Part shown: positions 3,104-49,159 of the stretch, in pieces
How the letters are laid out: each line of letters starts with the position of its first letter
How positions within the stretch are numbered: the first letter of the stretch is position 1
NCBI GenBank assembly: GCA_964016885.1
Contig: OZ024758.1
Coordinates: 6,076,001-6,140,000 of the forward strand
Direction: 5' to 3'
Source: Eledone cirrhosa
Taxonomy: Eukaryota
Length of the DNA: 64,000 nt
Notes under the pieces: generated by a model
Told to the model about the DNA's origin: nothing
Database searches by the model: none
Seen by the model: only the letters and a program-made list of their open reading frames with translations
Program-made: the position numbers and the translations under genes

Positions 3104-3137
3104 ATGATGAAGATATGTTTTGTAATAGTGGCTTTGG
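3104..3137 (+). CDS. Gene A exon 1 ([11 protein letters not shown], first half of signal peptide)
   Basis: ATGATGAAG...TTGG|GTAAGC donor. Confidence 0.8.
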
Positions 3138-6100
3138 GTAAGCTATTGAAATATTTTATATTATTTAAGTCATTAAGTCGTCAAGTATGAAATTTGTAAA
3201 AATTTGTAGAAAAACAAACAAATTTCTACAAATTTCATACTTGACAACCCAATAGTTAGCCGGTGGGTATTTTGTTAGTTAAACGGGTATTGTATATGTA
3301 TGTGACGTTATATATTATTATGATATTGGGTTCAAGGAAGACACTACAAAAACGCTGTTTTCTAAAAGAAATATTTCATATTTTATAAAGGAAATATATT
3401 TGGAACGCGGAGAGCAAAGTTTGGAATTGAAATAGAGGCTTCCCCGTAACATGATGACTACATCTAATCTAATCTGGCCGAGTTACACTCGCAAACAAGA
3501 AGAACCAGAGCTGCCCCTAGGAGCATTGGATTTGGTGTACTTCATATTTGTTTCGGTTGCTAAATACAATCAGGGGTCGCTGCTTCTCCTGAAGGTCAAT
3601 AGTTCTCTTCTAACTCGAGCGGGAGCGCCTTTCCATTGTCAATTTGTATTGATCATCTGCAAAGCCACATTGTTCTCAGAACCACTACACCAGTCTTTCG
3701 ATGCAGCTGGAACTACTGCCACCCATTGATTTGGCAGGATTATTTTATTTTATTTTATGTTTTTAGATGGCTGTTGACTCTTATGAGTTCTTCCGCCCTT
3801 TGTCAGGCTTTGTTTAATGTCCTGCAGGTTATCTAAAATCACCCTCCTCACCAAGTAAACTTGGTGGAGTTGCTGGTTTAGTCGCCGACGACCCGACCTT
3901 GCGACAGGTTGTACTGGGTTACATGTTACCAGTAGCACCCAAGAGTGACCTGACAAACAAATAGTGACTACATAATATAGTCTAATAATTGTTTCTACTT
4001 TTGGCACAAGGACAGCAACCCCAGTACATTACTGGTACTTTATTTTATCGACCCCGTAAGGATGAAAGACAAAGTTAACCTCGACAGGATTTGAACTCTG
4101 ACCGTAAATGGACGTAACTATGTTAGAAAGCATGGTATCCGACCCTCTACTGATACTGCCAAGTCATCGATGTAGTCTAATAATTGTTTCTACTTTTGGC
4201 ACAATGTCAGCAATTACCAGTGCATTACTGGTACTTTATTTTATCGACCTCCGGCAAAGTTAACCTCGGTGGGATTTGAACTCAGAACGTAAAGGGCCAT
4301 AACTCTATTCTGCAAAGCATGGCGTCTGGCTCTACCGATACTGCCAATCCACCGCCCTTAAATATAGTCTAATAATGGTCTTATACACCATGGGGCGGAA
4401 AAAGATGGATGCCAGCACACAGTGGGTATATATGCTCCATTATTAGACTATATATAGTCAAAATATTACAGCGAAGCTTCTATTTCTATTTCAATTTCAT
4501 ATTGAAATAGTGCATATGAATGTTGATTAGAACATTTACTTATAAATGTCAAAATACAGTATATTCCAACATGTTGAAATGTATTGGTTAGAAAACAATT
4601 TTATTTTGTTTCATTTGTCATCCTTTCCCTTTCTATATTTCTACCGCATTGTATCGGCTTTCTGAGACCCTGACCAATCAACTATTACATATCTCACCAT
4701 GTTTCATATTAACTATTTCTCATTATCTATCTATCTATACATACATACATGATGGCTGCAACTCGATTTCGAGTAATGCCATCACTTAATACTGCAGTGT
4801 GAGCATCATGGACGTGGCTTTTTAGCCCTGCTAGGAACTTGCCTATGATTAGCAATGCCATGCATCGCAATAAATGTCACATATCAAGCGATGCCTGTGC
4901 TTGAAGCTTTTTTAAGTGAGGAAAGGCTTTGCACGGAGCCAATCCCACTCCCTGAACATCGAATGCATTTGCCCCCCAAAAAAAACTGATCTACGTCACT
5001 GGATACAAACGAAGTCGTAGGTTTTATATCAGAGTGACCTTCTCCTAGAGAAATGTCTCAATGAAGATATCTCTAGGGCGGGTAAAATTCCCGAGATCCA
5101 TGGACGAGTTTTCTCCAGCGGTCCTGTCTCCCATTATCGCTGCCACGTCCTGCGTCTTCAAGAGACCGGTGTCTGTCCTTAGGGCATCAACATATGTCAA
5201 CCTTGGTCTTCCTCTTCCAGTGTGTCCATGTAGGGGCTCCCACAGGAGCACTGAGTGCAATGTCAACTCTGAATGTCGGTGAGCATGTCCAGCTAACCTC
5301 AGTCTCCTCTGTGCTACTTTCAAGCTGACTTTTGGGAGGCTCCCATACAGCTCTGAGTTCTTCATCCTCAGTGTGTACTGATTAATGTTCTGAGCCATCC
5401 TCAGCATTCTCGTGTAGCACCCATCTATCATCTGAGTGAGTTTCTTGACCAGTGTCCAAGTCTCAGATCCGTACAGTAGCACAGACTCCACTACTATGAA
5501 GATATACGTACATACATATGTGTATATATGTCAACAGTTTGGATGGGACTACCCATGTAAACTCGCATATCTGAAGAAGTGGCGATTAAGAGTCGGGATC
5601 CGATCAAACCCAAGCTGATCGATATGGAAACAATTGTAATATTCAATAAAGTTTCATAAAAAGCTGCAAATCTGCTGACTTCTTATTGTCATTATATATA
5701 TAAAGGGCGGTGGATTGGCAGTATTGGTCGGACGCCATGCTTTGCAACAAAGAGTTACGGCCCTTTATGATTTGAGTTCAAACCCCGCCGAGGTTAACTT
5801 TGCCTTTCATCCTTACGGGGTCGATAAAATAAAGTACCATTAATACACTCGGATAATTGCTGGCCTTGTGCCAAGAGTAGAAACAATTATATATATATAC
5901 AAACATATATATATATATATATATATATATTATTTTATCGACCCCGTAAGGATGAAAGGCAAAGTTAACCTCGGCGGGATTTGAACTCAGACCATAAAGG
6001 GCCGTAACTCTTTGCTGCAAAGCATGGTGTCCGACCCTCTACAGATTAGTTCCATTGTTGCGAGAAATAATTATAATTGTATTGAATTTACAAATATGTA

Positions 6101-48800: not shown

Positions 48801-49159
48801 TCTCTCTCTCTCTCTCTCTCTCTCTCTCTCTCTCTCTCTATATATATATATATATATATATATATATATATATATATATATTATATATATATATATATAT
48901 TATATATATATATATATATTATATATATATATATATATTATATATATATATATATATTATATATATATATATATATTATATATATATATATATATTATAT
49001 ATATATATATATATATATTATATATATATATATATATATATATATATATATATATATATTGGAATATTTATAGGAATAAAATATGTGAAATAAACATTCA
49101 GTAAAAGTTTACGAAAGAAATCACTTACCCAAAAACCTAAAAACCTTGTTTAATTTCAT
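38655..49159 (-). CDS. Gene B: secreted micro-exon mucin-like protein, about 495 aa, paralog of gene A
   Basis: Exons 49159-49129 (MKLNKVFRFL), 48117-48085 (AIFAAVTSKLI), 46441-46370 (TNGFDLVNENLPSFLLENNHIYLK), 45342-45295 (AELYRHRGNDNESPSN), 42466-42425 (DDNEEVKICFNVSK), 42185-42144 (KNSLENLYQKIKSK), 39874-38655 (Thr/Lys/Pro-rich mucin exon). All GT-AG and phase 1; internal exons are 33, 72, 48, 42, 42 nt. Confidence 0.8.
40191..41846 (+). mobile_element. Non-autonomous Helitron with internal tandem duplications
   Basis: A|TCTATATA start; subterminal hairpin cccgagcaacgccggg; CTAG|T end; a roughly 200-bp block present three times. Confidence 0.85.
42144..42185 (-). CDS. Gene B exon 6 (42 nt; in-frame alternative donor after 42150)
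   Basis: ctcttttttttcag|...AAGA|gtaagc or ...AAGC|gtgagt. Confidence 0.75.
42425..42466 (-). CDS. Gene B exon 5 (42 nt)
   Basis: tttctgttcatttcag|...AAGA|gtaagt. Confidence 0.75.
43480..43992 (-). mobile_element. RTE-clade LINE 3' fragment
   Basis: KAKIFDTYILPVVLYGLDC...LKLYGYIKR. Confidence 0.75.
44383..44582. mobile_element. Mariner-like MITE (other copies near 37847, 43021, 44610, 49438, 53022, 53987, 61368)
   Basis: TIRs of about 30 bp, GAGGGTCAGCTGAAAAGTTCATAAGCTGAC / GTCAGCCTATGAACTTTTCAACCAACCCTC; TA-flanked. Confidence 0.75.
45295..45342 (-). CDS. Gene B exon 4 (48 nt)
   Basis: ttttatttaaag|...AATG|gtatgt. Confidence 0.7.
46370..46441 (-). CDS. Gene B exon 3 (72 nt)
   Basis: ttttgtttttgtag|...AAAG|gtatgt. 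Confidence 0.75.
48085..48117 (-). CDS. Gene B exon 2 (33 nt)
   Basis: ttcttttaatttcag|CCATCTTCGCAGCTGT...|gtaaac; homologous to gene A exon 2. Confidence 0.8.
48470..48788. mobile_element. Palindromic Penelope-like end, fourth family (related copies at 27050-27215, 31545-31737, 33250-33335, 35522-35560)
   Basis: Near-perfect inverted arms of about 135 bp between (GA)n/(TA)n tracts; contains the CGAAACG half-core but no CTGATGA. Confidence 0.6.
49129..49159 (-). CDS. Gene B exon 1
   Basis: ATGAAA...TTGG|gtaagt, the same junction as gene A exon 1. Confidence 0.75.

Follow-up and report, generated by a model that had tools for sequence, protein, structure and literature searches.

The closest described counterparts of the genes considered here are the micro-exon genes (MEGs) of schistosomes which, as portrayed in three reports (PMC4671649, PMC4350168, PMC4015677), encode secreted proteins by way of small symmetric coding exons, lie in tandem clusters, evolve rapidly and are said to be restricted to flatworms; the same reports describe exon skipping shown by transcripts, and product classes among which are O-glycosylated proteins rich in Thr/Ser/Pro as well as small peptides of amphipathic character. 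In one of these reports (PMC4671649) MEG micro-exons are given as mostly under 36 bp and the signal peptide is located mostly in a long 5' exon, with two MEGs as exceptions, and a wider exon range of 3-81 bp is quoted in a preprint (bioRxiv 10.1101/2023.06.21.545858). A second counterpart is the vertebrate SCPP group, a tandem family, enamel, milk and saliva proteins included, in which a signal-peptide exon is joined by small exons and by a single large exon that varies; its members are derived from SPARCL1, have their entire signal peptide encoded in exon 2 and possess a Ser-x-Glu exon (PMC4373244). Among cephalopods, the sex-pheromone precursors SP-alpha/beta of Sepia officinalis are described (PMC3484142) as gland-secreted and Cys-rich, three precursors 37-98% alike along their length from which dibasic cuts yield a peptide cocktail, and they exemplify the use of dibasic multi-peptide precursors by cephalopod glands. 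The present study concerns a stretch of 64,000 nucleotides (nt), referred to as the window, from the 3.0 Gb genome of Eledone cirrhosa (GenBank assembly GCA_964016885.1; forward strand of contig OZ024758.1, here C19, at C19:6076001-6140000), which together with its upstream flank contains a real and apparently undescribed family of three predicted genes, designated D, A and B, with a MEG- or SCPP-like plan of likely independent origin.

The three predicted genes form a cluster spanning 126 kb, D and A being on the + strand and B on the - strand, with D situated outside the window, 80 kb upstream of A. Gene A extends over 3104-24431 (window positions, as throughout unless a contig or locus is named) and its joined frame codes for 114 amino acids (aa); gene B runs from 49159 to 38655, with a joined frame of 493 aa. 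A first-pass annotation of the window had proposed A and B as paralogous secreted micro-exon genes in which exon 1 ends TTG G/GTAAG (the slash marking the splice boundary), exon 2 is recognisably shared, and all 11 small internal exons are phase 1-1 and multiples of three. Both exon 1 endings were found just so, the exon-2 motifs were located at 6138 (+) and 48117 (-), and the internal exons (33, 51, 21, 51, 39 and 42 nt in A; 33, 72, 48, 42 and 36 nt in B) proved symmetric in 11 of 11 cases, each with a stop-free frame. In gene D the internal exons were symmetric and open in 20 of 20 cases, giving 31/31 symmetric internal exons for A, B and D together. Micro-exons make up 69% of the coding sequence (CDS) of A and 75% of that of D, and 16% of that of B, the other 84% of which is non-micro-exon owing to a large last exon; this Thr-rich exon of 1.2 kb and the third paralog D were both absent from the first-pass annotation.

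Exon 2 of A and B was identical at 17 of 23 nt, a likeness exceeding that obtained with a null of simulated signal-peptide codons (p ~4e-5), and the homology originally proposed for these two exons, which a random resemblance between signal peptides could have refuted, thereby withstood that comparison. A profile derived from A and B, scanned over 264 kb in the type of paralog search by exons 1 and 2 that had been suggested from the outset, yielded as its best non-self match (17/23) the 33-nt exon 2 of D at C19:6001161, with exon 1 lying 2.2 kb upstream at C19:5998980. Common to D, A and B are 31 coding nt in exon 1 (counted in A from the second ATG), an exon 2 of 33 nt, a GTAAA-type donor past exon 2, a V-x-S motif at the same exon-2 position, and a signal peptide, as judged by hydropathy and V-x-S, split into ~10 + 8 residues across the two exons; in addition, all three genes possess an ATTTAA element 59-67 nt before the ATG (A, 67 from the second ATG; B, 62; D, 59), and exon 1 of A agrees with that of D at 23 of 31 nt. 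It is likely that D, A and B descend from one secreted-protein gene of which the signal-peptide start has been kept. Past that start, the later exons of A and B had been considered devoid of visible mutual similarity, and the wider comparison gave much the same picture: among 207 pairs of later exons from different genes only A6/B5 stood out (0/300 DNA shuffles; p = 0.09 as protein), no relation was detectable between the 16-aa repeats of B and the 48-nt cassettes of D, and no likeness linked the Cys-containing C-terminal tail of B to that of D (p = 0.88).

No fourth member was found in 664 kb around the window, nor did protein searches reveal one. Genome-wide, the exon-2 pattern with one mismatch returned 25 sites against 15 for its control, and none of the 22 sites outside the cluster, an exact match on contig C28 included, combined a good acceptor with a donor at +33. 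The exon-1 and exon-2-plus-donor patterns returned 14 and 22 sites respectively, against 15 and 35 for their controls, and inspection by eye placed both together only in the three cluster genes. Distant members could be missed by these searches, because the patterns were built on D, A and B. The last exons of the genes are single-copy in the genome.

Past its exon 2, gene D comprises 19 exons of 36-57 nt, all of them multiples of three that are open in phase 1, and 18 of these are copies of one cassette with recognisable flanks and near-identical splice signals; exon copying is directly visible in the sequence of D. The cassette pattern is confined to D save for one stray site (13/14 matches). 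The dipeptides KR or RR are present in 8 of the 19 cassettes, in five of them at the same position, and the cassettes are followed by acidic exons and then by a cationic Lys/Arg-rich tail. Divergence was compared between exons and upstream flanks in three cassette pairs without a common member (D10/D11, D8/D9 and D12/D15): differences were recorded at 37/153 exon sites against 11/713 upstream-flank sites, and within the exons at 30.2/112.5 nonsynonymous and 4.8/31.5 synonymous sites. In a recent block duplication (D10-12/D13-15), 7/153 exon sites differ against 31/2578 intron sites. Accelerated coding evolution was observed in this comparison of D cassettes, and the initial description of a lineage-specific, fast-evolving secretory family is supported in so far as no known family was found with the last exons of B and D, a third member came to light and the D exons outpace their flanks.

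Symmetry was compared with chance using a hand-set splice scorer (acceptor-donor pairs enclosing 12-90 nt and scoring >= 8), written after the exons had been seen and applied to the A and B spans on the sense strand, with 1.66 Mb of strands as background. Stop-free phase 1-1 candidates accounted for 4/6 in the A span and 3/3 in the B span (together 7/9) versus 31/203 in the background (Fisher p = 1e-4; 1.5e-4 and 2e-3 at thresholds of 6.5 and 9.5), and in the D span 17 of 19 unbiased candidates were symmetric against the same background. The first-pass contention that chance splice sites are unlikely to produce such a symmetric set is supported by this enrichment, obtained with a scorer that postdates sight of the exons. 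Among the sequencing runs listed as containing the last exon of B there was none of RNA; the three runs listed, in which introns were evenly covered and exon joints absent, were genomic, and are silent on the expression of A, B and D.

As predicted, the B product consists of a signal peptide, four micro-exon modules, degenerate 16-aa repeats, Thr-rich heptads (26 copies of a 7-aa unit, 38817-39368) and a short one-Cys C-terminal tail, the last exon supplying 405 open codons that follow a strong acceptor and continue the correct phase, and Thr amounting to 27% of the protein overall. The combination of a signal peptide with a Thr/Pro-rich tandem-repeat exon conforms to a secreted mucin-like plan; since no domain in the last exon, vWD and CK included, exceeded the Pfam cut-off, B would not seem, to judge by its domains, to be one of the gel-forming mucins. 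At 39713 in this exon a Lys to Glu coding difference appears in two of the three genomic runs, and is probably allelic. A donor-like site soon after the stop in B (38598) and D (L007:3643) is followed in each, further on, by what may be a non-coding final exon containing AATAAA, an arrangement not present in A.

In the predicted A product the signal peptide is followed by an acidic spacer of net -9 and then by a cationic stretch of net +13 in 46 aa, with two mature Cys; cleavage at the R-R-K-R site between exons 7 and 8, predicted from the motif, would free the last-exon peptide. Intron 3 of A contains inverted near-identical stretches of several hundred bases (8652-9110 and 11620-12060) around an AT-rich element, which carries a long stop-poor minus-strand reading and is probably a transposon.

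Homolog searches were conducted with single-exon parts, namely the B and D last exons, and unnamed octopus gene models may still match the spliced parts. No homologs of residues 1-165 of the B last exon were found among proteins of 222-709 aa or 710-2025 aa, none were found for the C-terminal 55 aa of B, and none for the last exon of D among 1.84 billion representatives. For the last exons Pfam gave nothing above cut-off, a sub-threshold NEPRO_N match only, and the ESM Atlas gave no match to the D tail. A lead of 0.78-0.82 in the ESM Atlas to a mucin-like viral G glycoprotein, obtained with the single-exon parts, was set aside as a reflection of composition. No description of D, A or B was found in the literature searched, and supplements of octopus genome and proteome papers, outside that search, could list unnamed models. 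That the family is apparently undescribed, as had been suggested, is consistent with the lack of any database homolog of the B or D last exon.

Table 1. Predicted features of genes D, A and B (window positions unless prefixed by C19, the contig of the window).
Feature	Position	Strand	Remarks
Gene D	C19:5998980-6039622	+	starts ~77 kb and ends ~36 kb ahead of window base 1 (loci L011-L007); 22 predicted coding exons, 417 aa
D last coding exon	C19:6039336-6039622	+	follows the 19 exons that come after exon 2
TATA-like ATTTAA, gene A	3040..3045	+	67 nt before second ATG
A coding exon 1	3104..3137	+	opening half of signal peptide; 31 nt counted from second ATG; phase-1 donor GTAAG
A exon 2	6138..6170	+	33 nt; signal peptide end, predicted V-x-S cleavage motif; homologous to B2, D2
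A exon 3	7700..7750	+	51 nt; acidic spacer; weak AAG acceptor
A exon 4	12412..12432	+	21 nt; first mature Cys
A exon 5	13465..13515	+	51 nt; cationic
A exon 6	15238..15276	+	39 nt; second Cys; rival internal donor after 15254
A exon 7	19817..19858	+	42 nt; cationic; R-R-K-R (furin-type) site at junction with exon 8
A last coding exon (exon 8)	24357..24431	+	runs to TAG stop; AATAAA at 24550
TATA-like ATTTAA, gene B	49216..49221	-	62 nt before ATG
B coding exon 1	49129..49159	-	31 nt; phase-1 donor GTAAG
B exon 2	48085..48117	-	33 nt; signal peptide end; weak donor GTAAAC
B exon 3	46370..46441	-	72 nt
B exon 4	45295..45342	-	48 nt; weak AAG acceptor
B exon 5	42425..42466	-	42 nt; contains one Cys
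B exon 6	42150..42185	-	36 nt
B last coding exon	38655..39874	-	1220 nt; another, weaker acceptor lies in frame at 39868
Possible non-coding last exon of B	36930..37104	-	donor ~57 nt past stop, strong acceptor, AATAAA; speculative

It is probable, in our assessment, that D, A and B encode co-secreted, fast-evolving gland components, with the exons of each gene used in a fixed order. An ancestral secreted-protein gene would have kept exons 1 and 2, the remainder being rebuilt from small phase 1-1 exons. Where an intron is in phase 1, the reading frame survives the gain, copying or loss of an exon only if that exon is 1-1, and because the intron after exon 1 is in phase 1, exon symmetry is to be expected from duplication alone; symmetry so expected is no proof of exon skipping, which is possible and not needed for the layout. 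Within such a secretion B may serve as an O-glycosylated mucin-like scaffold, and A as an acidic spacer plus a cationic part that would be cut at basic sites on exon borders. D may be a multi-peptide precursor with one unit per copied exon, many with a Lys-Arg start, these units being followed by an acidic region and finally by a cationic tail. The scheme presupposes transcription and splicing as modelled, secretion, and processing at basic sites. The rapid change of the D exons relative to their flanks would point to diversifying selection acting where the secretion meets microbes, prey or mates. As to the tissue, only a guess can be offered, the salivary or venom glands and the reproductive glands being equally favoured and skin mucus slightly less so.

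A number of points tell against this account. All exon junctions of A, B and D are predictions from genomic sequence, and secretion, cleavage, glycosylation and tissue are likewise all predicted, the first three from motifs. Several splice sites are weak (the AAG acceptors of A3 and B4, the GTAAAC donor of B2, and the competing internal donor in A6, use of which would give a 17-nt exon), A6 and B2 were not recovered by the scorer, and the donors of D18 and D20 were set by cassette homology, the scorer having listed 35 and 67 nt. Exon 1 of B, which encodes a short hydrophobic core, matches exon 1 of A and D at only 15-16/31 nt, and the likeness of the whole promoters among D, A and B is marginal (p 0.04-0.17). 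The ratio of nonsynonymous to synonymous change (dN/dS) in D is based on ~5 synonymous changes; moreover, synonymous divergence in the D exons (~0.15) exceeds flank divergence (0.015), so that part of the contrast between exon and flank could stem from intron homogenisation or from constraint on splice signals.

Of the alternatives, the least unlikely is that a free-living cephalopod has independently evolved a true MEG-type system, in which exon-per-peptide modules were duplicated, positively selected and kept symmetric for combinatorial skipping, each gene thereby providing a variable secreted cocktail for venom, mating or mucus defence; we regard this as a tentative and rather unlikely proposition. 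The unbroken symmetry of the internal exons in three genes, the near-identity of the cassette splice signals in D, the share of the CDS of A and D held in micro-exons, and the symmetry of the A and B exons despite the absence of visible mutual homology are all in its favour. Exon duplication alone, however, yields symmetry, B is largely composed of non-micro-exon sequence, and the basic cleavage sites of A span exon junctions, an arrangement that fits a fixed exon order.

Very unlikely is the view that A and B represent, in part, fortuitous assemblies or else genes in decay, their first exons being real and the later ones intronic noise. The weak sites at A3, A6, B2 and B4 would be accommodated by it, as would the 15% of background candidates that are symmetric by chance and the absence of a homolog from the searched databases; against these stand the enrichment of symmetric candidates (p ~1e-4), the open B last exon with its correct phase and strong acceptor, the intact stop and AATAAA of A, and the construction of D on the same plan. 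That D, and perhaps A, is instead a neuropeptide or hormone precursor acting internally, related to the rest of the family by a shared signal cassette only, can be called highly improbable, for although the repeated Lys-Arg sites and acidic spacers of D would suit such a role, its predicted peptides diverge fast and, unlike neuropeptide repeats, share neither a C-terminal motif that is conserved nor a recurring Gly for amidation, the mucin-like paralog B is better suited to an exocrine function, and the last exons have no Pfam match.

The cluster is interspersed with and flanked by other genes. A calmodulin-like EF-hand gene (+) lies between D and A (L005:6705-6848, plus an exon ~9.1 kb before the window; Pfam EF-hand_6, E = 6e-9) and could serve as a synteny anchor, a multi-exon gene (+) with Cys/His-rich C1-like exons at 53869-53927, 54477-54633, 59293-59419 and 60456-60520 occupies ~51650-60520, and a BOP1-like gene (-) is situated downstream of the window (L015-L016; C19 ~6,152,000-6,168,000), its BOP1NT matches being below the Pfam cut-off. 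Long perfect palindromes around TA microsatellites, identified by eye at 18480-19040, 31560-31990 and 48380-48790, are typical of fold-back repeats.

If true, an octopod family with a plan similar to that of MEGs would show that a design for variable secretion arose again outside parasites. Gene D may be viewed as this process caught under way, one exon plus its splice flanks having been copied ~18 times with the coding letters racing ahead, and the family as a whole is a clear-cut case for deciding between skipping and duplication history alone as the source of symmetric exons. Because D, A and B are invisible to annotation based on open reading frames or homology, any peptides they encode would go unrecorded in proteomes of cephalopod venom, mucus or the reproductive system.

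In relation to known systems, the label MEG-like that was first attached to A and B is justified by the small symmetric exons of A and D, and the cluster further resembles MEGs in its predicted secretion, clustering, fast evolution and mucin-like plus amphipathic product classes. The label fits less well in other respects: only 4/31 internal exons are <36 nt (6/31 at <=36), most here being of 39-57 nt, although all 31 fall within the wider range quoted in the preprint; the signal peptide is split as 31+33 nt; and a CDS made up mostly of small symmetric exons is a property of A and D and not of B, which is mostly one mucin-like exon. Searches with the B and D last exons revealed no sequence link to MEGs. 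Conotoxin and frog-skin precursors have a conserved signal peptide, an acidic spacer, a hypervariable mature region and exons that change faster than introns, with few exons and many paralogs, whereas the present family comprises three paralogs with as many as 22 coding exons and shows no cysteine framework. By eye, the SP-alpha/beta peptides given in the Sepia officinalis account bear no likeness to D, A or B, and look unrelated to them. Introns of SCPP genes are in phase 0, and the genes described here differ in their phase-1 introns, split signal peptide and absence of a Pfam link, features that set them apart from the SCPP family proper. As analogues, with membership in neither group being claimed, SCPP genes would appear to be as good a parallel to D, A and B as MEGs.

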